NCBI GenBank assembly: GCA_027460535.1
Contig: JAPZAR010000021.1
Coordinates: 30,001-62,000 of the forward strand
Length of the DNA: 32,000 nt
Source of the DNA: Candidatus Methanoperedens sp.
GTDB lineage: Archaea; Halobacteriota; Methanosarcinia; Methanosarcinales; Methanoperedenaceae
Direction: 5' to 3'
Below the pieces are notes generated by a model. That model saw nothing but the letters and a program-made list of their open reading frames with translations. It was not told the DNA's origin and did not search any database. Position numbers and translations under genes: made by a program. Below, piece after piece: positions 15,546 to 32,000 of the stretch; position 1 is the first letter of the stretch; the number at the start of each line of letters is the position of its first letter.

Positions 15546-18500
15546 CTAATATTCTACCTTCAAGCTCCCTATATCGGTCATCAACTCCAACAGCACAATG
15601 CCAGATGGTGTCACTTTCTGCTCCTTTTTCCCTTCAATCTTAACACTTATCTCGGTTTGATCTTTTTTCCCGCTAAACTTTGCCTTGGCATCGAAGAGCT
15701 TCTTAACTTCGATCTCTTGCTCCAATTCATTGAGCAAGCCCTTCTCCTCAGTGTATTCCACCTGATCTCTGTTCATTGCTATGTTCGAAACTGTTCCAGC
15801 GTTGTACTGTGTGCTGATGACCTCTATTTCAGCTTCCTTGCCCTCTTTCTTGTGTCTTAAGATGAGTGTGAGCGAGTTGTTTGCAATATCCCTGAGGGCG
15901 TACTGTCTCCGTTCCCAGGCTTTTTCGTTCTGGTCTTTTTGCTCTTTCTTATCTTTATTTTCTTTCTTCGAAGGCAATATTATATAGTTTGTATCATTTC
16001 CAGTCTCGACGTTGTATACCCTGAAATCTTTCAAGGAGATGTCGAATCTTATTGCTGCTTCTGGAGGTGTCTTGTCAATTTTGATCGTTTGGCTCTTAAT
16101 CAATTCTACGTTGCCCGCATTATCTGTTGAGCAATAGTAAATCGTTGATATCCCTTCGCTGCTTATGTTGAACGGGGCAGTATATCGAATCCAGGTTGCA
16201 TTATCCAGGCTATATTCAATCCAGTTCACGCCCGAACCACCTAGATTGTCCGTTGCCGTTAGATTCATCCGGACATCAGAAATGTACCAACCGTTATTGC
16301 CAATGCTTCCAGATAATACAGCAGTTGTTATTGGAGATACGGTATCAGAAGTGGCTATTTGTGGAATAGATGGGCCACCGTCGTCTATGATTATGCCATT
16401 GGCTGTAAGGTCATCGTCTCCTAATCCTCCATCTGTGAGTGTTATTGTTATGGTGTTGCCATTGATGCTGCTGGGAATAGTGTACCAATGAGTATTGTGG
16501 TTTTCTCCATATTTCCAGTAAGTTGTACCATCTGGCAGGTATTCTGGAAATGTCATTGTGAGAGTTATGCTGCCGCCAAGATTTATGCCTGTAATGTTGA
16601 ATCTGAAAAGACCATAATAGAGATTTGCCTCAATTGGAGGTTGTTCAAGTATGGAATTCGGATCCACAGCTATCATATCTTGAATAGTGCCTGCGCTTGA
16701 TTGAAGGAACACGGTGCCTTTTCCGGTGATAGATTCAATATGGAATCCGGATGGTTCTATCACTGATAAACTTACACTTCCACTAACTTCTCCATTTCTT
16801 GCAGTTATTGTTGTTATTCCTGGTGAAAATGTATATGCAAAAAATATACCTTGACCCATATCAAATGTTCCCAAGCTTGAATTGCTGGAACTCCAAGTTA
16901 CTATAGAGGTGATGTCATTCCCATTTTGATCCTTCGCAGTAAAGGAAATTGTATTACCCATAGCAACTGATGGCATAGCTGGTGAAATAGTTATAGTTGT
17001 GATTGATGATGAAACAGTCACATTTACACCTTCTGTTAAACTACCACTTCGTGCTGTTATTATTGCTGTTCCTGTTCCAGTTGCTGTAAACTTTGCTCCT
17101 GAATAAAATGTGTCTGTAATCGGTTCAATTGTGCCCACTGTTGGATCACTGATGATCCACGTTACAGGTAATTCCATGATAACTCCAAATTGATCTTTGG
17201 GCATAGCGAAAAAATCCCAATTATAACCCGCAAAAATCACTCCATAATCTTGAACCTCTTCGGTGGTGGGAGAAAGTGTTAAAGATGTTAATTTTTGTTC
17301 ATACGGCATTTTAAATGATACCAACGGATATCTATCAACATCAGAACCCTCTTGAATATTATAACTTGAATCACATATGTTATTATCGTCTGAATCAATA
17401 CAACCTTCAAAATTTTCATCAAAATTACTATAATGATTACCTATATTCTCGTAATCCCACTGATTCTGACCATTGCTATAAACTAGATCCTTTAAGAAAT
17501 TATTCTGATAAATTACATTGTTATTGCTGGAATCCAAATAGATACCTGCCTCATTTGCCGATAATATATTTTTAAATATCATATTCTCTATTGAATTATA
17601 AAAATAAATACCGTCACCATTTGAAATTACAATATTTTCTGATATAAGGTTATAATCAGAGCCGTCCAAAAAAATACCTTCACGATTATTCGAGTAAACA
17701 TTCCCGTTGATGAGGTTATTTCTTGAAGATTTGAGGTAAACTCCATTTTGGTTTGAAAATATATCATTATTTGTAATCTTGTTATTATTCGAATTTACCT
17801 TAATTCCTGCATAATTGAAATCATAATTAACTTCCGAGTTTGTAACTCCAAATCCTTCAAGTGTTATTCCATTTGAGGATATTGTAATTGGACTACCAAA
17901 CCCCCCAGCATCTACTATTGGCTTCCCACTGCCGGTATCAACTCCTTTTAATATAAGTTCAGGAATATTCACGTCCGCGTTTTCATGATAAGTACCGCTG
18001 TTAACAAGGATTGTATCCCCAGGATATGCTGCATCGAGAGCATCTTGGATTCTGGTATAATCACAATCACTGGGGCAAACTGTGCGCGTAATTGGAGTTG
18101 GTATCACAGGTGTTGTGGGTAATACCAATGAAACCAATGGATACCTATCCACATTATTTGGATCCAAAGGATTGTTTCCGCTTGGAATATTATAGCTTGA
18201 ATCACATATGTTATTGGAATCAGAATCAATACAACCTTCAAAATTTTCATCAAAATTGCTGTAATGATTTCCAATAATTCCATTATCCCAATTATTATTT
18301 GATAACCCATAGTTGTCAATGGCGTTTTCACTGTTACCAAAAAAATTGTTCTGATAGATATTATTGCTATTGCTTAGTAATATTATGCCCCCCATCTGGC
18401 AACATTCCAATCTTCTTAAACCATTTAGATAGACATTATTACCCGTAATGATATTTCCTTCTTGTGAATATGCACCTCCTCCAACAAAAAGTCCCATATT

Positions 18501-21473
18501 ATTTAAATAAATATTATTGTTTGAAATAATATTATTGTTAGGACTTGAATGAGTTAAAATGCCAATACCATTGGAGAAAACATTATTATTTGAAATGTAG
18601 TTATTTGTTGTAGCTATATTTATTCCTGCATTGAAGTCAGCTTCGTATTCACCACCGCTATAAAAAAATAATTCACCACCACTATTGCTTGCATTAAATC
18701 CTTCAAGAGTAATTCCATTAGCAGAAAGTTTGATCGCACTACCAGTGCCACCAGCATCTACAATCGGCATTGTACCATCTGTTTTCTGACCCCGAAGGGT
18801 GAGTTGTTTGTTGATATCCACATTTTCTTGATACGTTCCACTATGCACTAAAATCATATCACCAATGTTCGCTGCATCAATAGCCGCTTGAATTCCGTTG
18901 TAATTGCAATTATTTTGGCAGACAGTAAGTGTCGCAGGATTCGGATTGGGCGACCCTATTACAAGATTTATGTTTGTCGTTTTTGTCTCTCCACCACCTG
19001 TTCCAACAATGACTACTGTATAAGATCCTCGTGGTGTTGTATTTGATGTAGTGATAGTTACTCTAGTAGCTTCATTAAGCATTGCCGGATTCTGAGAAAA
19101 TTTACAGGAAGTTCCTTCCGGTAATCCGGAACAGCTAAGCATAACAGGTGTAACAAAACTTCCTTGACTGATGAGATCAATTAATAGTGACATAAAACCA
19201 CCAATTGCAACAGACTGAGATGGTGATTCATAAAGTGAAAGAGTGAACGTTGGATCGTTGTCCAGAACTTGGTAATATTCCTCGTGCACCTCATTTCCAT
19301 TAGCATCTTTCCATGTCTTAGAAAGATCATAACTATCATAACCCCAACTATACCAGCTACCTGAACCATCATCTGCGGTAACATACATTGGAAATGAACT
19401 TAATCTGTCACTTGGACTGGTTAACTTTTTCGACATCCATGTATATTCTTGTTGGGAATCACAATATGAACTATCTTTATTTGGATCATAAGAGTAATCC
19501 CTTGTGCAGTTATACTTTATACTTGAATCATAATCCCTGCGGTCGCCGATATTTAAAATTTTATGTCCGGGGAGTTCAGGTGTCGCTCCAAATGACCACT
19601 GATAATAAGTTTCTCCGACTAATAAATAATATTCATCATATCCATCGCCGTCATAGTCTTTTATATGCCAGTTATTAGCACAATAAGGGCTATTAACTAC
19701 AGTTTTAAGATAGTAGCCCACATCAGTATTAGAGAGATCTTTCGAAAAATCCACACAATATGAAGGAATGCCCTGAATACTTGATCTTGTACTGAACTGC
19801 CAGCTATATGGTGACTGCAAATTATTATTTGCCAAATCCTTAACATTTGTTCCCACCGAAACAATATACGTTGCGTCATAATCAAGGTCTGAACTTGGAG
19901 TATAAGTCATGGTGTTGCTGTTCCAGTAAAAGCTTCCTGCAGTTGAAGGAGATATTGAAAAAGACGATTCGGCAGATGCATGATCTATTGCTTCACTGAA
20001 GGTGATGGTTATTGATGTATTTGCAGGAATATTGCTACCAGTCGGAGTATTATAAGTGATTGTCGGTGGAGTGGTGTCTGTTGGTGGAGGTTGTCCTAAC
20101 GATGCGCTAAAATCCATATGATCGCTATTATCAGCGGCATCGTTTGCCCAGTCGCTCCAGAAATAACCATTGTAAGCTCTTACATGCCAATGGTAATGCT
20201 TTCCATCAACTAAGCCCCCATTTATATATTCTGCAATTGAAGGTGTAATTTGAGAAGACTCTGGATTCGAAATAGTCTTTTCAAGAACAATCTTGGTGCC
20301 GTCAGTTTTCAAGCCGCTATCCTCCCAAACTCTAATTTGATAAGCTTTGATTTTATTTAAGGATATGTCACTTAAAGGAGGCCACCATCGATACGTGGGT
20401 GTTAAAGTATTGACATGAGAATCCATCTCTGGCTCTTGTAATATTGGTGTTTTTGGTATAAGATTTATCCTTCCTTTCCCATCCAATAGTGTTTCTTTTT
20501 CATCCTCGGTCAGGACGTCGATTGCTGTATCTTTCAGGATAGTTTCTGCTGTTGGTGCATTATTTCCCATCCTCTGTAAAAGTAAAAGTGCTCCAGCAAC
20601 ATGGGGCGCAGCAAAAGAACTTCCAGATATATAATTTTCATAGCCATTTTCCGAAGTATTTAATGTGTATATACTCTTACCTGGTGCTGCAAAATCTGGT
20701 TTCGCATAATCTGGGGGTACGATTTTAGGATTTTGTGGGCTGCCACCCAAAAATAAGTAATCATTAAAATCTTGAATAGAAGAGACACTAATTACCTTTA
20801 CACCAGTTGATGGTGATATAGGATACTTATCATCTTTATTTCCTGCTGCGGCAACGAAACTTGTATCACTGTCTACTTTATCTGATGCATACTGAGCGAT
20901 CTCGTCATAACAGCTACCCTGAAAAGAAGGGCAAATTGAGGTGACAATAACATTTGCACCATTATCTACGGCAAAATTAATTCCAGCTTCATAATCAATA
21001 AGACCCGTAATACCCTCAGCAGGCTTTATAATAATGAATTTTGCTTTTGGTGCAATTTCCCAAATAATCCCTGCAATTCCAGTTCCATGTCCTTCACTAT
21101 CATCAATACCGTAAATTGCATATGGACCACGAGAGGCAATTATATTTATTTTCCAATCAACAGGATTATTTTTACCGTCCATATTCACAATTGGGTGATC
21201 TATATCTATCCCTGAATCAATTATGGCTACAATTTTGCCCTCACCATAATTTCCCCATCCCCTTTCATGCATTTTGTCAAACCCAATATTTTCAATTCCC
21301 CAATTTTCTTTATTCATACAATCCCAATATGATTTTGGGTCGTTGTTTATTAAATCTGTACCGCATCTTATATCAGCAGCACTCGCTCCGCCAGCCAGCA
21401 ATAAGATTGCCAGTATTGTTATCCCAAAAACTATCCTAAGGACACGCTCTTTATTCTTTTTATTCTTAAACAT
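15546..21473 (-). CDS. Giant secreted S8 subtilisin-like protease fused to SbsA-type Ig, two NosD/PbH1 beta-helix modules, Big_2 Ig-like domains and further beta-rich domains
   Basis: I start at the ATG at 21473, which has GGTGG 5 nt upstream; the track's 21482 start is a GTG. The signal peptide is ILLLAGGASA|AD. The catalytic triad contexts are IIDSGIDIDHP, GHGTGIAG and SGSSFAAPHVAG. The beta-helix repeat regions are Asn-rich (NNN.I..N). Big_2-like segment: ITISPAMPSVAMGNTISFTAKDQNGNDIT. No C-terminal membrane anchor is visible. Confidence 0.9.
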   Translation of the reverse strand: MFKNKKNKERVLRIVFGITILAILLLAGGASAADIRCGTDLINNDPKSYWDCMNKENWGIENIGFDKMHERGWGNYGEGKIVAIIDSGIDIDHPIVNMDGKNNPVDWKINIIASRGPYAIYGIDDSEGHGTGIAGIIWEIAPKAKFIIIKPAEGITGLIDYEAGINFAVDNGANVIVTSICPSFQGSCYDEIAQYASDKVDSDTSFVAAAGNKDDKYPISPSTGVKVISVSSIQDFNDYLFLGGSPQNPKIVPPDYAKPDFAAPGKSIYTLNTSENGYENYISGSSFAAPHVAGALLLLQRMGNNAPTAETILKDTAIDVLTEDEKETLLDGKGRINLIPKTPILQEPEMDSHVNTLTPTYRWWPPLSDISLNKIKAYQIRVWEDSGLKTDGTKIVLEKTISNPESSQITPSIAEYINGGLVDGKHYHWHVRAYNGYFWSDWANDAADNSDHMDFSASLGQPPPTDTTPPTITYNTPTGSNIPANTSITITFSEAIDHASAESSFSISPSTAGSFYWNSNTMTYTPSSDLDYDATYIVSVGTNVKDLANNNLQSPYSWQFSTRSSIQGIPSYCVDFSKDLSNTDVGYYLKTVVNSPYCANNWHIKDYDGDGYDEYYLLVGETYYQWSFGATPELPGHKILNIGDRRDYDSSIKYNCTRDYSYDPNKDSSYCDSQQEYTWMSKKLTSPSDRLSSFPMYVTADDGSGSWYSWGYDSYDLSKTWKDANGNEVHEEYYQVLDNDPTFTLSLYESPSQSVAIGGFMSLLIDLISQGSFVTPVMLSCSGLPEGTSCKFSQNPAMLNEATRVTITTSNTTPRGSYTVVIVGTGGGETKTTNINLVIGSPNPNPATLTVCQNNCNYNGIQAAIDAANIGDMILVHSGTYQENVDINKQLTLRGQKTDGTMPIVDAGGTGSAIKLSANGITLEGFNASNSGGELFFYSGGEYEADFNAGINIATTNNYISNNNVFSNGIGILTHSSPNNNIISNNNIYLNNMGLFVGGGAYSQEGNIITGNNVYLNGLRRLECCQMGGIILLSNSNNIYQNNFFGNSENAIDNYGLSNNNWDNGIIGNHYSNFDENFEGCIDSDSNNICDSSYNIPSGNNPLDPNNVDRYPLVSLVLPTTPVIPTPITRTVCPSDCDYTRIQDALDAAYPGDTILVNSGTYHENADVNIPELILKGVDTGSGKPIVDAGGFGSPITISSNGITLEGFGVTNSEVNYDFNYAGIKVNSNNNKITNNDIFSNQNGVYLKSSRNNLINGNVYSNNREGIFLDGSDYNLISENIVISNGDGIYFYNSIENMIFKNILSANEAGIYLDSSNNNVIYQNNFLKDLVYSNGQNQWDYENIGNHYSNFDENFEGCIDSDDNNICDSSYNIQEGSDVDRYPLVSFKMPYEQKLTSLTLSPTTEEVQDYGVIFAGYNWDFFAMPKDQFGVIMELPVTWIISDPTVGTIEPITDTFYSGAKFTATGTGTAIITARSGSLTEGVNVTVSSSITTITISPAMPSVAMGNTISFTAKDQNGNDITSIVTWSSSNSSLGTFDMGQGIFFAYTFSPGITTITARNGEVSGSVSLSVIEPSGFHIESITGKGTVFLQSSAGTIQDMIAVDPNSILEQPPIEANLYYGLFRFNITGINLGGSITLTMTFPEYLPDGTTYWKYGENHNTHWYTIPSSINGNTITITLTDGGLGDDDLTANGIIIDDGGPSIPQIATSDTVSPITTAVLSGSIGNNGWYISDVRMNLTATDNLGGSGVNWIEYSLDNATWIRYTAPFNISSEGISTIYYCSTDNAGNVELIKSQTIKIDKTPPEAAIRFDISLKDFRVYNVETGNDTNYIILPSKKENKDKKEQKDQNEKAWERRQYALRDIANNSLTLILRHKKEGKEAEIEVISTQYNAGTVSNIAMNRDQVEYTEEKGLLNELEQEIEVKKLFDAKAKFSGKKDQTEISVKIEGKKEQKVTPSGIVLLELMTDIGSLKVEY
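17316..18092 (-). repeat. Intragenic tandem module 2 (NosD-like beta-helix module, ~259 aa)
   Basis: Runs from ITRTVCPSDCDYTRIQDALDAA...PIVDAGGFGSPITISSNGITLEGF to NHYSNFDENFEGCIDSDDNNICDSSYNI...VDRYPLVS. It is collinear with module 1. Confidence 0.85.
18120..18938 (-). repeat. Intragenic tandem module 1 (NosD-like beta-helix module, ~273 aa)
   Basis: Runs from ATLTVCQNNCNYNGIQAAIDAA...PIVDAGGTGSAIKLSANGITLEGF to NHYSNFDENFEGCIDSDSNNICDSSYNI...VDRYPLVS. An ~88-nt block (18182-18269) is roughly 90% identical by eye to 17352-17439. Confidence 0.85.
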
Positions 21474-21846
21474 CTTTCCCACCTATCCATTGATGCATGA
21501 TTACTTCTCTTTGAGCAAGTCACTCATCTTATGTTACCCGTGTAAATCGTAATTCTATAAATAAATTGTGAAATTAATGGCTCTTCTATATTTCAACCCT
21601 AATATCTCGTTCTATAGCAACAAAGAGATTGATTTTTGACGATGTCTGTATCAGAATATACTTTTGCTCACGGAAGTCGTTATTATAGCTGTTATCTGTA
21701 TAGCCAGCATCATCGCCTAATTTCATCATCGAGATTTCCATTTTTCCATTTCTCTCAGTATGATAGAGTTAATAGAAAATGAAAAAGATTATCATTTCAG
21801 ACGAAGTGTAAGATATACGAACCAAGTTCGGACATAGATGGGTTGA

Positions 21847-24688: not shown

Positions 24689-24937
24689 ATGAAAGCGGAA
24701 AAATTGCTTGAACGCATAACTCTTAACCCAGATGTTATGACAGGAAAACCTGTAATCAAGGGGACAAGACTTACGGTGCAGTTTATCGTGGGATTATTAG
24801 CGCATGGCGCTTCTGTGGAGGAAATCCTTGAAGAATACAAAGGATTAACCAGGGAAGATATAAGAGCATGTTTGCTTTTTGCAACAGAATCCCTTGAAAA
24901 CATTACATTTATGCCTTTGACAGCAGAGGCTTGTTAG
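24689..24937 (+). CDS. DUF433 domain protein (antitoxin-like HTH), embedded between hsdS and hsdR
   Basis: ITLNPDVMTGKPVIKGTRLTVQFIVGLLAHGASVEEILEEYKGLTREDIRACLLFA is a full-length match to the DUF433 pattern as I remember it. Confidence 0.8.
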   Translation: MKAEKLLERITLNPDVMTGKPVIKGTRLTVQFIVGLLAHGASVEEILEEYKGLTREDIRACLLFATESLENITFMPLTAEAC

Positions 24938-24959: not shown

Positions 24960-27890
24960 ATGACAGCGCCCAAACCAACAGAACATAAAAGCGTCCAAGC
25001 TCGTATACTAAAATATGCACAGGAAATCGGCTGGAGGTATGTCTCGCAAAGCGAAGCCGAGCAGCGCAGAGGTTTTGATCCATCCGGCGCTTCTCCGAGA
25101 GAGAAAGCCAAAAACGCTTCCCGCTTTTTTACCGATACTTTATTTGAAAAGGTAAAAGACTTTAATCCAAAGTTCAAAGACAGCAAAGAAGAACTCCTTC
25201 GCAAACTCAATTTGCCTTTGCCAACCATCGCGGGCAACCGGGATTTTTTACAGCATCTTCAGGGAGAAAAAACGTTCTTCAGCAAAGAGGAAAACCGTGA
25301 ATTTAACCTTGTGCTGATAAACTATGGCGAGCCAGACAAAAATGTGTATGAAGTAACCGAAGAATATTATCTTTTCAATGGGCAGTATGCCAATCGGGAG
25401 GATGTTGCATTTCTCATCAATGGCATTCCGGTTCTTGTAATCGAATGTAAAAACGCCACCAAAGACGAAGCCATTGCAATAGGTATAGACCAGATCAGAC
25501 GCTATCACCGTGAGACGCCGGAGTTTTTTTGTCCAGAGCAGATTTTCACAGCCACTGAAAGCATTGGTTTTTCGTATGGCGTAACATGGAACCTCATCAG
25601 AAGAAATATTTTTAACTGGAAAGAAGAAGAAATCGGCAATCTGGAAGTAAAAATTAAATCCTTCTGCGGCAGGCAGAATATTCTTGATTACTTGAAAAAA
25701 TTCATTATTTTTGCAGAGCAAAATGAAGAGCTGAATAAATACATTTTAGCTCAACACCAGAAAACAGCAGTAACAAAAGTATTAGAACGGGCAATCGACC
25801 CGAAAAAGACAAGAGGTTTAGTATGGCATACGCAGGGAAGCGGCAAAACCTTTACTATGATAAAAATAGCTGAACTGCTGTTTAAAGCCCCCGAAGCCGA
25901 AAAACCCACCATTCTCTTGTTGATCGACCGCAATGAACTGGAAGACCAGATGGCCAGAAATCTTGAATCGTTGGGTGTAAAAAATGTAGTACAGGCAGAG
26001 CATATAAGAGACTTGCAAAAATTGCTGAAAAATGATTATAGAGGAATAATAGTCAGTATGATGCATAAATTCCAGGATATGCCTGCTGATGTCAATCTTC
26101 GCAAAAACATTTATGTGCTGATTGATGAAGCGCACCGAACCACAGGAGGAGATTTAGGAACATATCTGATGGCTGCCGTCCCGAATGCTACTTTAATAGG
26201 ATTTACAGGCACGCCGGTTGATAAAACAGTTCATGGTAAAGGAACATTCAAGACCTTTGGCCTTGAAGACGAATCTGGTTATCTGCATAAATATTCCATT
26301 GCAGAAAGCATTGAAGATTATACAACATTGCCCCTGTTTTATGGGATGGCTCCAAATGAGCTTTTAGTCCCCAGGGATATTTTGGAAAAAGAGTTTTTGA
26401 ACCTGGCGGAAGCTTATGGGGTAAGCGACATCGAAGAATTGAATAAAATCCTGGAACGTGCTGTTAATACCCGCAACTTTTTGAAAGGAAAGGAACGGGT
26501 AGAAAAGGTGGCTGAATACGTGGCAAGTCATTACAAAGAAAATGTCGAGCCAATGGGCTATAAGGCATTTTTAGTTGGAGTTGACCGTCCAGCATGTGCC
26601 ATGTATAAAAAGGCGTTAGATAAGTTTCTGCCCACGGAATATTCGGAAGTAGTTTACACCGGCAACAACAACGACACAGAAGACCTAAAGAAATATCACA
26701 TTGACACTAAAAAAGAAAAGGAAATTAGAAAGAAGTTCACCAAAATCGGAGAACTGCCCAAGATCCTGATCGTTACGGAAAAACTTTTGACAGGTTTTGA
26801 TGCACCGATTTTGTACGCCATGTATCTGGACAAACCAATGCGTGACCATACCCTTCTTCAAGCCATTGCAAGGGTAAACAGACCATATGAGAACGAAGAA
26901 AAGGATATGAAAAAGCCTCATGGTTTTGTCCTGGACTTTGTAGGCATATTTGACAAACTTGAAAAAGCACTCGCATTTGATAGCAAAGAAATCAATTCGA
27001 TAATAAAGGATATTCAACTGCTGAAACACCTGTTCAAGGCAAAGATGGAAGAAAAAGTTCCTCCTTACTTACAACTGATTAAATTTGGTTTTAACGACAA
27101 AGACACAGATAATCTCATTGCATACTTTAGAGATAAATCCAAAAGAAAAGAATTTTTCAAATTATACAAAGAGGTGGAAATGCTATATGAAATCATTTCA
27201 CCTGATAAATTCTTAAGACCATACATTGACAATTACACTACGCTTTCTGCTATTTACCAAATCGTAAGAAATGCCTATGCAAAAAGAGTCCAGGTTGACA
27301 GGGAGTTCCAGAGAAAAACAAATGAATTGATCCAGAATAAAATAGGCATGAGCAATTTGCAGCAGGTTAATGAATTCTTTGAGATTAACGAAGAAACGAT
27401 TAAAAAAATACAAGATACTCAGAAAAATGACAATACACGGGTAATCAACTTAGTAAAGAGTATTGAAAGAATTGCTGAAGAAGAATCTGATGACCCATTT
27501 CTAATTGGTTTGCAGGAAAGAGCTGCCCAAGTAGAAGAAAGCTATGAGGACAGGCAAATTACCACGCAGGAAGCATTAGAAGAAATCAGAAAGATTTATG
27601 AAGATGACATAAAACGGAAAAAAGAACAGGTAGAGAAGGGCTTTGATGGCCTAACTTTCTTCATTTACAGAACACTGCTCGACAAAGATTTCAAAAAGGC
27701 GGATGAAATAACCAAGCAAATTAAAGCAGAGTTTGTTAATAATCCGAACTGGAAATCAAGCGAAAAGGAATTGAGAGATCTGAGAAAAGGAACATATTAC
27801 GCTGTGCTTAGCGAAGAAGAGAATATTGACAGAGCTGCTGCAATTGTAGAAGATTTATTTAATCAGTTATTCAAAGCCTACAACTTATGA
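24960..27890 (+). CDS. hsdR: Type I restriction-modification system, restriction (helicase/endonuclease) subunit
   Basis: Motif I is VWHTQGSGKTFTM, motif II is LIDEAHRTTGG, followed by GFTGTP and QAIARVNRP. I prefer the ATG at 24960 (MTAPKP) to the TTG at 24948 used by the ORF track. Confidence 0.9.
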   Translation: MTAPKPTEHKSVQARILKYAQEIGWRYVSQSEAEQRRGFDPSGASPREKAKNASRFFTDTLFEKVKDFNPKFKDSKEELLRKLNLPLPTIAGNRDFLQHLQGEKTFFSKEENREFNLVLINYGEPDKNVYEVTEEYYLFNGQYANREDVAFLINGIPVLVIECKNATKDEAIAIGIDQIRRYHRETPEFFCPEQIFTATESIGFSYGVTWNLIRRNIFNWKEEEIGNLEVKIKSFCGRQNILDYLKKFIIFAEQNEELNKYILAQHQKTAVTKVLERAIDPKKTRGLVWHTQGSGKTFTMIKIAELLFKAPEAEKPTILLLIDRNELEDQMARNLESLGVKNVVQAEHIRDLQKLLKNDYRGIIVSMMHKFQDMPADVNLRKNIYVLIDEAHRTTGGDLGTYLMAAVPNATLIGFTGTPVDKTVHGKGTFKTFGLEDESGYLHKYSIAESIEDYTTLPLFYGMAPNELLVPRDILEKEFLNLAEAYGVSDIEELNKILERAVNTRNFLKGKERVEKVAEYVASHYKENVEPMGYKAFLVGVDRPACAMYKKALDKFLPTEYSEVVYTGNNNDTEDLKKYHIDTKKEKEIRKKFTKIGELPKILIVTEKLLTGFDAPILYAMYLDKPMRDHTLLQAIARVNRPYENEEKDMKKPHGFVLDFVGIFDKLEKALAFDSKEINSIIKDIQLLKHLFKAKMEEKVPPYLQLIKFGFNDKDTDNLIAYFRDKSKRKEFFKLYKEVEMLYEIISPDKFLRPYIDNYTTLSAIYQIVRNAYAKRVQVDREFQRKTNELIQNKIGMSNLQQVNEFFEINEETIKKIQDTQKNDNTRVINLVKSIERIAEEESDDPFLIGLQERAAQVEESYEDRQITTQEALEEIRKIYEDDIKRKKEQVEKGFDGLTFFIYRTLLDKDFKKADEITKQIKAEFVNNPNWKSSEKELRDLRKGTYYAVLSEEENIDRAAAIVEDLFNQLFKAYNL

Positions 27891-28213
27891 TTATGAGTAA
27901 ATGGAACGATAAATCTGAATTCAAGGCAAGAGTAAAAGAGTTTGCCGGAAAAATGGATATTGAAGTAAAAGCACTTGCTATCAGACCTATGACAAACAAA
28001 TGGGCTTCATGTTCTACAGATGGTAATTTGAATTTCAATAAAGAACTTCTGGACATGGACAAAGAAATTGGTGACTACGTAATTGTGCATGAATTGTTGC
28101 ATTTCAAGGTTCCCAATCATAGTAAACTTTGGAAAAGCTTAATGACTGCTTACCTGGGCGACTATGAGAAGTTAGAAAAGAAATTGAATAAAATAAAAAT
28201 TGGAGAAAAATAG
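27887..28213 (+). CDS. DUF45 / COG1451-type (M48-like, YgjP-like) zinc metallopeptidase, short form
   Basis: WASCSTDGNLNFNKELL...DYVIVHELLHFKVPNHSKLW contains the HExxH motif in the DUF45 context. The start overlaps the hsdR stop (ATGA). Confidence 0.75.
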   Translation: MIMSKWNDKSEFKARVKEFAGKMDIEVKALAIRPMTNKWASCSTDGNLNFNKELLDMDKEIGDYVIVHELLHFKVPNHSKLWKSLMTAYLGDYEKLEKKLNKIKIGEK

Positions 28214-28216
28214 AAA

Positions 28217-28290
28217 CTGCCGCCCCCATCTTGTGCCAACCAGAGCCGGACAGGTGGGGAGAAGATATCGCAAACAGTGAATCGCATAAC
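28217..28290 (+). repeat. GC-rich boundary repeat, copy R1 (short variant lacking the central core)
   Basis: It shares CCGCCCCCATCTTG with R2 and GAGCCGGACAGGTGGGGAGAAGATATCGCAAA with the right arms of R2-R4. It begins 4 nt after the DUF45 stop. Confidence 0.6.
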
Positions 28291-28520
28291 GGTATAATTT
28301 CTTGATAATATGTTCTTTCAAGATACATAAAAATAAATACTTTAGACAATATATAGATATAATAGATAAACAGAACTCATTGGAGTTCATAAACCTCAAG
28401 GGCTAAATTGACAGGAATTGAGAACGATATCTTATTAAGGAAGATGTTGCATTTCGTAGAAAAACACATAGACGATTTACCAGTAGCTACAAAGGATGTT
28501 AAGAAATTGAGGATTTAAAA

Positions 28521-29180
28521 ATGAAGAGATTATTATATATTCCAAATGAATCTTTGCCAAAAATTTCAAAATTTTTATCATTAGAAAAAAAATCTATTGA
28601 AACTTTTATCAATATTTTAATTGATTCCGAGAAAAAAAGTATTGTTGATTTATATCTTTCTATCATGAATGAAATGAATGTTTCAGATGATGATGCAGCA
28701 GCAATCTTTTCCACCTATAAATATTTGTTATTTGTTTTGGAAGAAAACAATTTAAAATTTTCCGACCTTATTCCAGAAACAAAATATATTTTGGAAACTT
28801 CCAAGATTCCAGATTATAACAAAATAAGCAAGAATGTAGATGTTAATTCAGAACATTTTAATAATTTATTTTCTGCTGGAAGCATTGAAGAGAAATTTGC
28901 AAAAAAAGAATTTTTATCTTCCGAAACATTCAACTCAGTGGTGGATATCCATTCTATTTGTGATATACGACCTTTTTTTAATGAAGAAAGAAATGAAATT
29001 TTGGACTTTCTAAATAGTATATATATCGAATTTACGGTTCAGGATTATGCGGATAATATTAAAATAATTCCACTGTCTTTTGACGATGAAGCTTTTGAAG
29101 ACCTAATCAAAGAAATTGATAATATTAAAAAGAAAAAAGAGGTTATCAATAAGAAAATATCCAAATGGAGAAAGATTTGA
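28521..29180 (+). CDS. Hypothetical protein A of the orphan operon (219 aa; acidic, predicted helical, Lys-rich C-terminal tail)
   Basis: GAGG lies 8 nt upstream of the ATG. The ORF is uninterrupted in very AT-rich DNA, where random ORFs this long are unlikely. Its stop abuts the next start (TGAATG). I recognise no motif. Confidence 0.7.
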   Translation: MKRLLYIPNESLPKISKFLSLEKKSIETFINILIDSEKKSIVDLYLSIMNEMNVSDDDAAAIFSTYKYLLFVLEENNLKFSDLIPETKYILETSKIPDYNKISKNVDVNSEHFNNLFSAGSIEEKFAKKEFLSSETFNSVVDIHSICDIRPFFNEERNEILDFLNSIYIEFTVQDYADNIKIIPLSFDDEAFEDLIKEIDNIKKKKEVINKKISKWRKI

Positions 29181-29687
29181 ATGTTTAATACCCAAATTAT
29201 TAATAGAAAGTTTTCAATCATCCGTGATATAAATTCATATCGGGCATCTCCAGCAAAATACAAACAAATGATACATTCAGGGAAATCTCACTTGGATAAT
29301 GTTTATGATCCTTTAAATCCTGTAATAAGAATTGATAGAGGTAAAATTCGTTCTGGACGACATGCTGAAATTCATAATCGAAGGGCTCGACCTATTGATT
29401 TCAAGAAAAAAAAGTTAAGAGTCAGGGTTTGCCCGGATATTAATAACTTAACCATTGGTGATTCCTTCAATGATTTTTATTCTCCAGTCAATTTTAATAT
29501 AAAAAAATATATAACAAAATTAGAAACAAAACATTCAGTTGATGATATAACCACTTTGGGCAGTACAACCCATGAAGAAAATTTAGAATATGATGTTTTT
29601 ATTCAGATGCCTCCCATAAAAAAATGGACCGCACGGGTAAAAATAAAAAGTATAGAAAACGCAAAAATGAATATAGTGGAACCATAA
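29181..29687 (+). CDS. Hypothetical protein B of the orphan operon (168 aa; strongly basic central patch)
   Basis: The start is immediately adjacent to the stop of A. It contains an Arg/Lys-rich stretch, RIDRGKIRSGRHAEIHNRRARPIDFKKKKLRVRV. I recognise no motif. Confidence 0.65.
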   Translation: MFNTQIINRKFSIIRDINSYRASPAKYKQMIHSGKSHLDNVYDPLNPVIRIDRGKIRSGRHAEIHNRRARPIDFKKKKLRVRVCPDINNLTIGDSFNDFYSPVNFNIKKYITKLETKHSVDDITTLGSTTHEENLEYDVFIQMPPIKKWTARVKIKSIENAKMNIVEP

Positions 29688-29693
29688 TGATAT

Positions 29694-30224
29694 ATGGCGA
29701 TTGAATATCCTTGGTACGAGGTTGTAAATTGTGATGCTGATTTAATGCAAGGTGACTTTATAAAAGGTTGTCCTATAATTATTCCCCCTTCAGAGATACA
29801 AGAGGAAGAAGAATTTGAAGCTCGTATTCTTAAATATAATGTAATCATTTTGAGCCAATCCTGCGATATTGCAAATAAGAAAATCGATCTGGTTCTTCTT
29901 TGTCCATTCTGGCCCCTTGAAGATTTAGAGAAACAAAGTACTTTTTTTAAAAGTAGCGATGGGAAAGAAGAATTAAGACGTGGAAATGTTACAGGATATC
30001 ATTTATTAAATAAATGTGGGCTAAAAGGGTTCAAAATGGCTTATCAGGTCGTTGATTTTCGTAATATTTATAGTGTTTCTTTAGAATTTCTTTCTGATCT
30101 GACTATAAAGAAAGGTGAAAGATTGCGTTTATTACCCCCTTATAGAGAGCATCTATCTCAAAGCTTTGCAAGATTCTTTATGAGAGTAGGCCTCCCTGTA
30201 GATATACCTGCATTTAAAAAATAA
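29694..30224 (+). CDS. Hypothetical protein C of the orphan operon (176 aa; QGD...SQSCD...RVGLP pattern)
   Basis: It starts 6 nt after the stop of B. Conserved-looking blocks are LMQGDFIKGCPIII, NVIILSQSCDIA and LLPPYREHLSQSFARFFMRVGLP. The resemblance to MazF/PemK-like barrels is only an impression. Confidence 0.65.
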   Translation: MAIEYPWYEVVNCDADLMQGDFIKGCPIIIPPSEIQEEEEFEARILKYNVIILSQSCDIANKKIDLVLLCPFWPLEDLEKQSTFFKSSDGKEELRRGNVTGYHLLNKCGLKGFKMAYQVVDFRNIYSVSLEFLSDLTIKKGERLRLLPPYREHLSQSFARFFMRVGLPVDIPAFKK

Positions 30225-30228
30225 GAAA

Positions 30229-30255
30229 CAACATGCTTTTGTTGTACGCATGTTG
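30229..30255 (+). terminator. Perfect 8-bp stem hairpin directly after the orphan operon
   Basis: CAACATGC (30229-30236) and GCATGTTG (30248-30255) are exact inverted repeats around a T-rich loop (ttttgttgtac). The hairpin starts 5 nt after the stop codon of protein C. Confidence 0.35.
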
Positions 30256-30327
30256 AACAAAATTGTAACCTGTCCCAGGAAGATAGTAGCCAGATCGATT
30301 CTTTTTCGCAATTATTCTTTACGAGCA

Positions 30328-30472
30328 GGTTGCTCCGCCCTCATCACCCCGCCCCCCATCTTGCTCCCTACTCCCTCCCTGCTTGCAGACCCGGTGCCTG
30401 CGGCATGCGCGGAGCCCGGAAAGGTGCGGAGAACACGATCAAATGCGGTGCGCCCAACATGAAATGGTTGCC
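30328..30472 (+). repeat. GC-rich boundary repeat, copy R2 (longest copy)
   Basis: It contains CCGGTGCCTGCGGCATGCG, which has 1 mismatch to the R3/R4 19-mer. It also contains AGGTGCGGAGAACACGATCAAA (1 mismatch to R4) and ends AAATGCGGTGCGCCCAAC plus the mini-hairpin CAACATGAAATGGTTG. G+C is 42/60 in the line starting at 30361. Confidence 0.8.
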
Positions 30473-30494
30473 TTTCGTGAGACGTTAGCTATTC

Positions 30495-30761
30495 TTATTT
30501 ATAAACATCTCCTCTAAGATCAACCCTATGGATCAGGATAACCTTTTGTTCCCAGATAACTTCGTAAACAATTCTGAACTTCCCTTTACGGATACGATAC
30601 TTATTCTTTTCACCTCTTAGTTTGGTGATATCAAGGGATTTTATGGGAACCGGGTCTTCTTTCAGGACAAGCATTGCCTCTTTGAGGCGCGCCCTGTCAT
30701 GTTTCTGCAGGGAAGAAATAAATTTCAAAGATTTGGCTTTGATATTTATTTCAAATGTCAT
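30495..30761 (-). CDS. relE: RelE/ParE-family type II toxin
   Basis: 88 aa. KYRIRKGKFRIVYEVIWEQKVILIHRVDLRGDVYK is the RelE/ParE C-terminal signature. The gene overlaps the upstream antitoxin gene by 4 nt. Confidence 0.8.
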   Translation of the reverse strand: MTFEINIKAKSLKFISSLQKHDRARLKEAMLVLKEDPVPIKSLDITKLRGEKNKYRIRKGKFRIVYEVIWEQKVILIHRVDLRGDVYK

Positions 30762-30946
30762 GCATTCAATACCTTTAGTAATTCGGCTTCCGAAGCTATT
30801 CTATCCTTGCTCCTTATCGCCCTAAGGTCTTCGGCTTCAGGTTCTTCTTCCGGGATCAGCCTATCAACAAGTTTTGAATATAAATTTGTGAGCATATCAA
30901 GGTCGGCGCGAATCTTTCTCAATTCAACCACTGTTTCGGTTACCAT
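30758..30946 (-). CDS. Cognate small antitoxin (62 aa, acidic)
   Basis: The call rests on position (immediately upstream, ATGA overlap with the toxin), size and acidic composition. No family is assigned. Confidence 0.6.
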   Translation of the reverse strand: MVTETVVELRKIRADLDMLTNLYSKLVDRLIPEEEPEAEDLRAIRSKDRIASEAELLKVLNA

Positions 30947-30969
30947 GCAATATCAGTTAATATTTTAAA

Positions 30970-30993
30970 CCTTATAAGGATTTTCCATGGAAA
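30970..30993. promoter_or_regulatory. Two adjacent perfect palindromes upstream of TA pair 1 (candidate operator/promoter)
   Basis: CCTTATAAGG (30970-30979) and TTTCCATGGAAA (30982-30993) lie 24-47 nt upstream of the antitoxin ATG at 30946 on the minus strand. The first one is itself TATA-like. Confidence 0.4.
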
Positions 30994-31017
30994 GTATAAA
31001 CTGAAGCAATTCATCAG

Positions 31018-31136
31018 ATGCGCCTCACCCCGCCCCCTCCCCGTTTGCTGATCCGGTGCGTGCGGCATGCGGGGAGCCAGGACAGGTGGAGAACATATCT
31101 CGACCAAATGCGGGCGCCCAACTTTGAAAGGTTACA
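31018..31136 (+). repeat. GC-rich boundary repeat, copy R3
   Basis: It contains CCGGTGCGTGCGGCATGCG (31053-31071), identical to R4. It ends AAATGCGGGCGCCCAAC plus the mini-hairpin CAACTTTGAAAGGTTA. Confidence 0.8.
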
Positions 31137-31192
31137 TTTTAAGGAGGGAATAGCGCATAGCCAACAACTTACAAACGTTGTCTACGCAGTCC

Positions 31193-31480
31193 TTACTTAT
31201 ATGCATCTCCTCTATGCTGGACTGAAGTTATCCTGACTTTCCTTGGATCATTATCCACAGAATAAAGAACCCTGTACTTGCCAATCCTTAATCTGTAGGT
31301 ATTATCCGGGTATCCTTCCATCGGCTTAACATCAAAACCTGATCTTGGTTGAACAGGATTCTTCTCAAATTCATCAAGTAATTTTAGAAATTTCTCAACA
31401 ACGTATTTTGGGACTTTTTCTAAATCTTTCTCAACCCGTTCATCGATAAGAACTTCGTATGGAGTTGTGTTTCTGCTCAC
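31193..31480 (-). CDS. RelE/ParE-family type II toxin (second, divergent copy)
   Basis: 95 aa. [34 protein letters not shown] is the RelE/ParE C-terminal signature. Confidence 0.8.
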
Positions 31481-31485
31481 TCATA

Positions 31486-31716
31486 TCAACTTCCACTTGA
31501 AACTCTTTTCCTCATTCGAGATTTAAAATCTTCTTTTGATATCCCTTTAAAATCAGCAAGGCGGCGATAATGTTCTTGGATATGTTCCGCGCTTATATCT
31601 TCGATTGATACCTTATTCATGAGCATATTCAGGACATCATCAAAAGTCAAGTCACCAAACTTATAATCCGATAGCCTTTCTTTAGTTTTCTCATTTATTG
31701 TAATAGTCGTTGGCAT
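31486..31716 (-). CDS. Cognate antitoxin (76 aa) with a VapB/DUF217-like N-terminus
   Basis: It stops 5 nt upstream of the toxin start. The N-terminus PTTITINEKTKERLSDYK resembles the archaeal TITI..e.y..L antitoxin motif. Confidence 0.6.
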   Translation of the reverse strand: MPTTITINEKTKERLSDYKFGDLTFDDVLNMLMNKVSIEDISAEHIQEHYRRLADFKGISKEDFKSRMRKRVSSGS

Positions 31717-31815
31717 AATTGAAATAATTGTTTTAATTGATATTAAAGTTATTTATGTTTCAAAGCATTTCATTACCCTGACAGATTCGTTTTCACACCT
31801 GGTCTGTTTGGGATA

Positions 31816-31927
31816 GTGTTGCGCCCACCTCCCCGCTGGCAGACCCGGTGCGTGCGGCATGCGTGGGAACAGGTGCGGGGAACACGATCAAAATGTGAAC
31901 TTTAATATATGTTTAAACATATGTTTA
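31816..31927 (+). repeat. GC-rich boundary repeat, copy R4
   Basis: GTGTTGCGCCCACCTCCCCGC...CCGGTGCGTGCGGCATGCG (31845-31863)...AGGTGCGGGGAACACGATCAAA. Its right end is replaced or extended by an AT-rich palindrome. Confidence 0.75.
31907..31922. promoter_or_regulatory. Perfect 16-nt palindrome immediately upstream of the VapB-like gene (candidate operator)
   Basis: ATATGTTTAAACATAT is its own reverse complement. ATATGTTTA recurs directly at 31919-31927. The palindrome ends 9 nt before the ATG at 31931. Confidence 0.4.
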
Positions 31928-31930
31928 CTT

Positions 31931-32000
31931 ATGACAGCCAAGACGATAACCATCCGCGAAGATATTTACAAAATGCTCCTCTCGATAAAGGGAGCAAACG
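31931..32000 (+). CDS. VapB/DUF217-like antitoxin, 3' end outside the window
   Basis: MTAKTITIREDIYKMLLSIKGAN matches the archaeal putative-antitoxin N-terminal pattern (KTITI.edvY..L...K). Only 23 codons are visible. Confidence 0.5.
   Translation, partial: MTAKTITIREDIYKMLLSIKGAN

Follow-up and report, generated by a model that had tools for sequence, protein, structure and literature searches.

A co-oriented noncoding repeat at the boundaries of shuffled, mostly toxin–antitoxin-like modules in Candidatus Methanoperedens

The window analyzed here is a stretch of 32,000 nucleotides (nt) from the chromosome of Candidatus Methanoperedens, and all coordinates are window positions unless a locus is named. 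Elsewhere the window is ordinary chromosome, with genes for a class I aminoacyl-tRNA synthetase, an isopropylmalate dehydrogenase, Thg1, a DUF5814 helicase, and a histidine kinase. Toward its right end, a type I restriction–modification (R-M) operon is followed by four copies (R1–R4) of a GC-rich noncoding repeat that alternate with small gene modules. Lengths of proteins are in amino acids (aa) and ORF stands for open reading frame.

27887–28213, + strand: YgjP-like gene (PF01863, E 3e-28), last gene of the type I R-M operon and left chromosomal boundary of the array
28217–28290, + strand: R1, a degenerate, internally deleted copy (nhmmer match 28243–28290, E 6e-5)
28291–30296, + strand: module 1, an orphan three-gene operon (219, 168, and 176 aa; ORFs 28521–30224)
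30297–30475, + strand: R2, a full copy (nhmmer E 9e-30, and alignment), with leader 30297–30327, TTGC box 30328–30339, C-tract 30340–30380, core 30381–30440, and class-A tail 30441–30475
30476–31000, − strand: module 2, a ParE/RelE-family toxin gene at 30495–30761 (PF05016) and a 62-aa upstream ORF at 30758–30946
31001–31139, + strand: R3 (nhmmer E 1e-26; exact 19-mer at 31053), with core 31043–31101 and class-A tail 31102–31139, its leader divergent or absent
31140–31783, − strand: module 3, a ParE/RelE-family toxin gene at 31193–31480 (PF05016, E 8e-12) and a 76-aa upstream ORF at 31486–31716
31784–31897, + strand: R4 (nhmmer E 1.5e-24; exact 19-mer at 31845), with leader 31784–31813, GTGTTGCGCC box 31816–31825, and core 31835–31889
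31898–32000, + strand: start of module 4, a promoter/operator region and a VapB antitoxin gene (ATG at 31931) that runs past the window end
30381–30390, 31043–31052, and 31835–31844, + strand: examples of the CTGC-NN-GCAG palindrome within the repeat core

A preliminary description of this locus had proposed four direct copies in one orientation, and a profile made from copies of the repeat family and run on the window with nhmmer bears this out. The profile matches 30304–30470, 31001–31135, and 31791–31916 strongly and R1 partially (profile positions 87–135 only), in all cases on the + strand. The 19-mer CCGGTGCGTGCGGCATGCG occurs exactly at 31053 and 31845 and with 1 mismatch at 30391, as had been described, and at no other site in the 32 kb (chance expectation 0 matches, 100 shuffles), and a repeat finder independently clusters 30366–30426, 31028–31088, and 31820–31880 as a single direct family. 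The stretches said to be common to R2 and R4, AGGTGCGG(A/G)GAACACGATCAAA, and to R2 and R3, AAATGCGG(T)GCGCCCAAC, are likewise present. R1 was correctly seen as a shorter variant: of the core it retains only the 3' third (GCCGGACAGGTGGGGAGAAGATATCGCAAAC), it also has a CTGCCGCC box and a C-tract that includes CCCCATCTTG, and it lacks both the leader and the central core, which the orthologous first copy of another locus (L064:1103–1245) retains. The limits given for the element hold only in part, as the 5' edge lies further upstream, with leaders that start at 30297 in R2 and at 31784 in R4. R4 also does not reach 31927; its right edge is at ~31897, judged from homology with the VapB module of locus L077, whose match begins at ~31898, and 31898–31927 is sequence of the VapB module.

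A full unit is ~110–180 nt long and GC-rich, and reads in the order leader, TTGC box, C-tract, core, and tail. In the alignment of copies, the leader is AT-rich and semiconserved, with the consensus TTCACAATTATTCTAT-N14-TTGCnCCG and the form GATTCATTTTCACAATTATTCTAT..., the TTGC box has variants (i.e. GTTGCGCC, GTTAGGC, and GTGCGCCG), and the length of the C-tract is highly variable. The core is 61 nt long (GCGCGCAGACCCGGTGCGTGCGGCATGCGCGGAGCCCGGACAGGTGCGGAGAACATATCGC), has a mean identity to consensus of 0.88 with sharp edges of conservation, and consists of two similar units of ~30 nt each; that of R4 carries a 5-nt deletion relative to the consensus. Inspection of the alignment finds a 4+4 palindrome, CTGC-NN-GCAG, inside the core and no dif-like dyad. 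No spot of the conserved region varies more than the NN center of this palindrome (GC, TT, TG, CG, AT, GT, AC, GG, and others), which may be either a GCGC/CpG mutation hotspot or a crossover spacer; as a candidate for the latter it was set aside, being inseparable from the former. The 3' tails fall into several alternative types, some of them with T-runs. The GCGCCCAAC tail is present in about a quarter of the copies, and another type, CAAACAACTATTTAAACCC, precedes same-strand toxin–antitoxin (TA) operons and resembles an archaeal promoter. The inverted termini once proposed for the element, GTTGCGCCC and GGGCGCCCAAC, do not occur in the same copy, and GCGCCCAAC is one of these alternative tails, so that claim is not supported.

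The preliminary description had called for a search of relatives, and this search maps copies of the element to module boundaries well beyond the window. The repeat family comprises 47 distinct copies at 19 nonredundant loci (labeled with L numbers here), all in Methanoperedens metagenome-assembled genomes (MAGs) or metagenome contigs. A scan for the 19-mer in one genome per species returned 54 sites, and the six that form a coherent group are all Candidatus Methanoperedens MAG contigs, some with 2–3 copies within 3 kb; the other 48 are single matches in high-GC bacteria and were discarded as chance matches to a short search pattern. A metagenome scan with a longer pattern yielded 13 further true loci and 4 matches rejected on the same grounds (L067, L069, L070, and L075), and no copies are present in the viral contigs and plasmids searched. 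In this search set, then, the repeat family is found only in Methanoperedens sequences.

Orientation is uniform among copies in every locus (19/19, verified by script for each). Loci contain 2–5 copies, with arrays of up to 5, spaced by 0.2–2.1 kb (~0.2–1.2 kb in L011 and L071), and the inter-repeat segments measure 135–1083 nt, with short "empty" intervals of 135–174 nt between two copies in L061, L064, and L065. Arrays sit between housekeeping genes, and no copy was found outside an array other than at the end of a contig. Contigs frequently stop at an array or close to one, which suggests that the repeats break short-read assemblies. Core identity is the same within a locus (0.80) as between loci (0.80), i.e. 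the family is star-like and exhibits no local homogenization. This equality is expected if copies move freely among arrays, and the pattern fits such exchange or a transposon-like origin alike. The window array, traced via its second toxin, is identical in five other datasets (L056–L060), and two more arrays are identical across independent datasets (L011 = L074; L013 = L073).

Modules between the repeats appear, by their domain content, to be almost all type II TA pairs. Among 59 ORFs from inter-repeat segments scanned against Pfam, we find PIN (4) and PIN_10 (3), MazE/AbrB (4), DUF433 (3) together with DUF5615 (3), ParE (3), HicA/HicB, HEPN with nucleotidyltransferase, and VapB, encoded on either strand relative to the repeat. 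In the window itself, the earlier assignments of the R-M operon end, the orphan operon, the two RelE-type toxins, and VapB stand, the last from a full-length copy elsewhere (L056:102–350; PF02697, E 1e-14). The two small ORFs upstream of the toxins are taken as antitoxins by position alone, as the 62-aa ORF has no Pfam match and the 76-aa ORF has just weak, sub-threshold matches to VapB/DUF7557. None of the three proteins of module 1 matches Pfam or PADLOC. This operon sits repeat-bounded directly after the type I R-M operon, and its 3' part recurs in L013/L073 beside a different downstream module; it is a candidate defense or addiction system of a new type. The noncoding repeats are better conserved than the genes they separate, as had been claimed: the toxins of modules 2 and 3 are 36% identical over 58 aa vs. 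82% over 61 nt for R2 and R3. Just 5' of the start codon of VapB lies a perfect palindrome, ATATGTTTAAACATAT (31905–31922, + strand), which L077 conserves and which is likely an operator for antitoxin autoregulation.

The combination of modules around the repeat changes from locus to locus. When 200 nt upstream and downstream of every copy are classed by sequence similarity, nearly every recurrent flank class has several partners; e.g. upstream class U1 occurs 5 times with 4 different downstream partners, and downstream class D0 occurs 7 times with 6 different upstream partners. Module 2 is 95–96% identical to modules in L050 and L071, where its neighbors differ, and module 3 recurs in L077 and L062, where a different module follows it. 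Modules are, as such, exchanged at the repeat, i.e. recurrent modules are joined through it to changed neighbors. Chimeric assembly is an unlikely source of these changes, because the ~20% divergence among copies makes long k-mers that span the junctions unique and because three arrays are identical in independent datasets.

Comparison of related genomes at fixed chromosomal anchors, another test proposed at the outset, leads to the same observation. Array content beside the gene asd differs between genomes: the order is ygjP, repeat, repeat, DUF433/DUF5615-type module, repeat, and asd in L064 (a YgjP-like gene directly before a repeat, as in the window), L017 ends with HEPN-MNT, repeat, and asd, and L084, where housekeeping genes lie to either side on a contig of 45.6 kb, has repeat, 227-aa module, repeat, a 73-aa ORF with PIN, a leader remnant, and asd. 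Downstream of asd, the repeat is missing from two other Methanoperedens species. At a second anchor, in L050, L066, and L061, the arrays adjoin the 3' end of a carboxynorspermidine-decarboxylase-like gene. Similarity of CCCCATCTT (R1 and R2) to the asd 3' end was considered as the origin of an attachment site of attB type and rejected, the match being too short to support it. An inverted repeat, CAGGAATATC-TGATATTCCTG (L017 4755–4775; L064 ~2330–2350), stands between the last, truncated repeat and the stop codon of asd; it is imperfect in L064, is absent from L084, and may be a terminator or binding site.

Within the repeat, leader and TTGC box are common to copies with the same upstream module, and the tail is common to copies with the same downstream module, in one case together with the last 40 nt of the core. 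Since the leader follows the upstream module and the tail the downstream one, the switch between partners lies inside the core.

The array had been likened to integron cassettes and its repeat described as structured. The likeness holds for the layout, as in a CALIN (a cluster of attC sites that lacks an integrase) at least 2 co-oriented sites <4 kb apart separate cassettes, here at 19 loci with changing neighbors, and it fails for kinship with the attC recombination sites of integrons. The motif RYYYAAC-N40-135-GTTRRRY, searched as a regular expression on both strands, is present in 0/45 copies and nowhere in the 32-kb window, and the conserved triplets come in the order GTT...AAC, opposite to that in attC, the archaeal attCs in Data S9 of PMC9668308 included. 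Single-copy DNA folds of the four window copies, on both strands, are no better than those of shuffles (z −1.9 to +1.4), and RNAalifold on 45 copies finds no consensus structure on the + strand and just a 6-bp hairpin on the − strand. The best candidate stem, TTGC box with GGAGAAC, pairs in 66.3% of cells vs. 66.1% when shuffled, and its covariation score shows no excess (0.113 vs. 0.114). Slid versions of this stem pair in 36–60% of cells vs. 66%, so what is left is a weak, imperfect inverted repeat at the consensus level only. An alignment-free test of arm coevolution (own arms vs. the arms of other copies) gives P = 0.92. Neither the description of the repeat as structured nor a conserved stem is therefore borne out, and an apparent compensatory change in R3 (CTCCCCG/CGGGGAG) is not general, as among copies only the 5' arm varies, and freely, against a fixed 3' arm.

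Several other identities for the repeat were tried and rejected. Rfam 15 returns no match at gathering score in the whole window, and at E ≤ 1 within 28000–32000 it returns two chance snoRNA matches, both outside the repeats. A minus-strand reading, MFSAPVRAPRMPHAPG, recurs among copies, but the core has frame-breaking indels of 2, 4, 5, and 7 nt, which speaks against a coding repeat. A tRNA-derived att site does not fit a window with no tRNA, and an array of clustered regularly interspaced short palindromic repeats (CRISPR), in which near-identical repeats of ~25–40 nt alternate with regular spacers of ~30–40 nt, does not fit units of 110–180 nt that are ~80% identical, are spaced by 0.2–2.1 kb, and have genes in the intervals.

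Given these observations, we favor, with moderate confidence, the reading that the repeat is a new, non-attC crossover region of an integron-like chromosomal cassette array. Modules would be gained, lost, and exchanged by recombination within the conserved core, such that the leader would travel with the upstream module and the 3' tail with the downstream module. Two direct copies would recombine to release a circle with one repeat and one module, and the circle would recombine with any other copy, which would insert it in the same orientation. We infer this circular intermediate, and an enzyme behind it, from the arrays as they now stand; insertion that always preserves orientation would explain the co-orientation of every array. 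The modules would be self-contained, each presumably with its own promoters and in either orientation, and the array would work in the manner of a sedentary integron or of a CALIN, as a bank of TA and defense-type modules. The enzyme could be a recombinase encoded elsewhere that recognizes the double-stranded core, or the host's homologous recombination acting on ~60–75 bp of similarity. Sharp core conservation and strict polarity favor a recognized site, while scattered terminal junctions, neutral-looking decay, and the lack of a linked enzyme favor host recombination on a repeat that spread otherwise. A tentative and more doubtful extension is that of a separate gene-capture system, parallel to integrons, in which a recombinase encoded elsewhere would act on a double-stranded, non-hairpin core of ~60–75 bp and move circular modules among several arrays.

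A number of findings weigh against the crossover-region reading. The absence of a recombinase gene from the window, stated in the preliminary description, is confirmed, and a search beyond the array in related contigs finds none within 10 kb on either side of the complete L084 array, nor in the L066 and L050 contigs (nor in L040). Some modules also occur without a flanking repeat (e.g. VapB in L077, which non-repeat sequence precedes), and the model offers no account of how a new module gains one. Mosaic copies do not narrow the crossover point further, as the core is too uniform. Array-to-chromosome junctions fall at differing positions of the repeat between genomes: in L084 only the leader is left beside asd, in L017 and L064 the repeat extends to GGTGCGG, and after ygjP the unit starts at the CTGC box without a leader. 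A fixed cleavage site seems a less likely source of such variable junctions than homologous or illegitimate recombination. The flanks of orthologous copies diverge at about the same rate as the copies themselves, and selection on each copy is for that reason not evident. All data, moreover, are MAG or metagenome contigs.

One tyrosine recombinase does lie near an array. In L055 (GCA_027460495.1, 1–2320), a 368-aa tyrosine recombinase and a truncated LigB-type dioxygenase fragment replace R4 and the VapB module. We rejected this enzyme as the array integrase: its scores are generic (85 bits vs. a cut-off of 220 for XerA, and 38 bits vs. a cut-off of 265 for IntI, TIGR02249), its neighbor is the LigB fragment, the divergence of L055 from the window (beyond ~31753) begins 38 nt before the repeat leader, and six loci with homologs of the enzyme contain no repeat. 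The region is probably the edge of an unrelated integrated element. Homologs in other Methanoperedens contigs also adjoin truncated genes (a NosD fragment, L079/L080).

We weighed the crossover-region reading against a small nonautonomous mobile element, akin to miniature inverted-repeat transposable elements (MITEs) or repetitive extragenic palindromes (REPs), that would have inserted into intergenic gaps of TA-rich islands, with the shuffling a by-product of homologous recombination. This explanation is unlikely, though several findings suit it: the star-like family with 0.88 identity to consensus, 0.80 pairwise, and no local homogenization, the neutral-like decay of orthologous copies, the weak TTGC box/GGAGAAC inverted repeat (66% vs. 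36–60% when slid), the "empty" intervals of 135–174 nt, and the modules that lack a flanking repeat. It is at odds with strict co-orientation at 19/19 loci, with the confinement of copies to arrays and contig ends, and with their lack of an associated transposase. Furthermore, no repeat-only insertion polymorphism was found, as the difference between L084 and L064 goes beyond a clean indel, and no target-site duplication was noticed at the junctions inspected, where no systematic search was made. Still less probable is an expression element, either a small gene for a GC-rich RNA or an element that insulates or terminates between convergent and divergent TA operons, with recombination incidental. 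The leader motif TTATTCTAT is conserved ~14 nt upstream of the TTGC box, a spacing that would be compatible with an archaeal TATA box and a start at the box, and both the sharp edges of the core and the T-runs of several tails suit such a function. However, Rfam gives no match at either the gathering or a relaxed threshold, neither conserved secondary structure nor covariation is seen, small indels are frequent inside the core, and the leader is missing or divergent in several copies, R1 and R3 among them.

A true integron cassette array, a CALIN with attC repeats and IntI encoded elsewhere, is largely refuted and very improbable, even though array layout and TA content resemble sedentary chromosomal integrons and attC clusters are reported in the Methanoperedens MAG GCA_007280025.1 (PMC9668308). 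The R''/R' layout is absent from all 45 copies, in which GTT and AAC come in reverse order, and no hairpin signal is seen. Archaeal attCs as published are canonical hairpins and differ in sequence (PMC9668308), and the sole nearby tyrosine recombinase, that of L055, falls far below the IntI cut-off and has repeat-free homologs. Equally remote is a leftover tandem duplication of one TA operon, the repeat being its shared untranslated region, or an artifact of repeat assembly. R2 and R3 do both precede ParE-family pairs and have the class-A tail in common, but the modules are unrelated families in both orientations, the toxins are far more diverged than the repeats (36% vs. 82% identical), copies ~20% apart should make junction-spanning 141-mers unique, and identical arrays recur in independent datasets. 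These points already contradict it, in agreement with the preliminary description, which had also argued against duplication.

The closest analogs are, by analogy of layout, sedentary integrons and CALINs and, more loosely, pdif modules. The repeats of the Vibrio cholerae superintegron are an example of a sedentary integron array used for this comparison. Like such arrays, those of Methanoperedens are long and co-oriented, with ~120-nt repeats that are similar within one host lineage and small modules between them, many of these TA pairs and often inverted relative to the site, and at a fixed place in the chromosome the arrays differ strongly in content from strain to strain; CALINs are also found without an adjacent integrase. 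An attC site folds as a single strand into an imperfect hairpin with R and L boxes and extrahelical bases. Unlike integron sites, the Methanoperedens site has no RYYYAAC...GTTRRRY boxes, imperfect hairpin, or covariation. The center of attC is variable, whereas that of the Methanoperedens repeat is its most conserved part. The Methanoperedens arrays, moreover, are at two or more chromosomal places, and no IntI, the integron integrase with its specific extra domain, was found in the window or within 10 kb on either side of the L084 array.

The pdif modules of Acinetobacter plasmids are bounded by XerC/XerD sites of 28 bp, with two arms and a 6-bp spacer, in alternating orientation. A Xer/dif-type site has two inverted 11-bp arms around a spacer of 6–8 bp, ~28 bp in all. 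The pdif modules resemble the present arrays in being discrete units, TA pairs among them, that copies of a short recombination site delimit and that turn up in varied contexts with no adjacent dedicated recombinase; they differ in that the Methanoperedens unit is >100 nt long, always direct, and contains just the 4+4 palindrome CTGC-NN-GCAG. REPs, bacterial interspersed mosaic elements (BIMEs), and MITEs are likewise short intergenic noncoding families of one lineage with star-like divergence, often just 3' of genes. A REP/BIME unit is a stable palindrome of ~35 nt, often in alternating orientation, and MITEs have terminal inverted repeats and a target-site duplication, their copies being dispersed in both orientations. 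In contrast to these, the Methanoperedens copies are uniformly oriented within arrays, tied to module boundaries, and without a stable palindrome or covariation-supported terminal inverted repeats, and no target-site duplication was noticed, with no systematic search.

Integrons serve as the textbook case of prokaryotes storing small accessory modules and reshuffling them. In the literature searched, we found no description of this repeat and nothing that connects it, or TA cassette arrays, with Methanoperedens. Canonical attC arrays are the only kind so far reported from archaea (PMC9668308). CALINs are defined in the same study as clusters of attC sites lacking an integrase (PMC9668308), and Ghaly et al. 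(2022; PMC9668308) found four attCs with IntegronFinder on QYPO01000187.1 of the Methanoperedens MAG GCA_007280025.1, where one cassette encodes a GyrI-like protein (PMC9668308). The archaeal attCs printed in Data S9 of that study are canonical hairpins (PMC9668308), and the QYPO01000187.1 element is probably different from the repeat described here, because IntegronFinder requires an attC model.

What the present arrays amount to is a chromosomal bank of predicted TA modules and orphan, possibly defense, modules in an environmentally important methane oxidizer, reshuffled at a non-attC repeat. Should there be a dedicated enzyme, the arrays would represent an independent recombination system whose site is of a new type, and an independent archaeal invention of the cassette-array principle. 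Even under host homologous recombination, the repeat would account for the hypervariability of these regions, and its 61-nt core is a handle for locating and comparing arrays.

Other features of the window touch the array at its edges. The YgjP-like protein is 108 aa long and matches only the C-terminal half of the Pfam model (positions 113–206 of 207), and its gene, which overlaps the end of hsdR by 4 nt, may be truncated or split. Within the type I R-M operon, hsdS and hsdR flank a DUF433 gene (24689–24937, + strand); elsewhere in arrays, DUF433 is the small partner of a DUF5615 PIN-like protein in TA-type modules. Further upstream, a giant ORF (15546–21482, − strand; 1978 aa), to which the precomputed annotation of L055/L056 assigns peptidase S8, NosD/beta-helix, and Big domains, contains internal DNA repeats with a period of ~830–846 nt (families D1, D3, and D6). 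It is absent beside the same helicase in L040, and thus belongs to a variable island.

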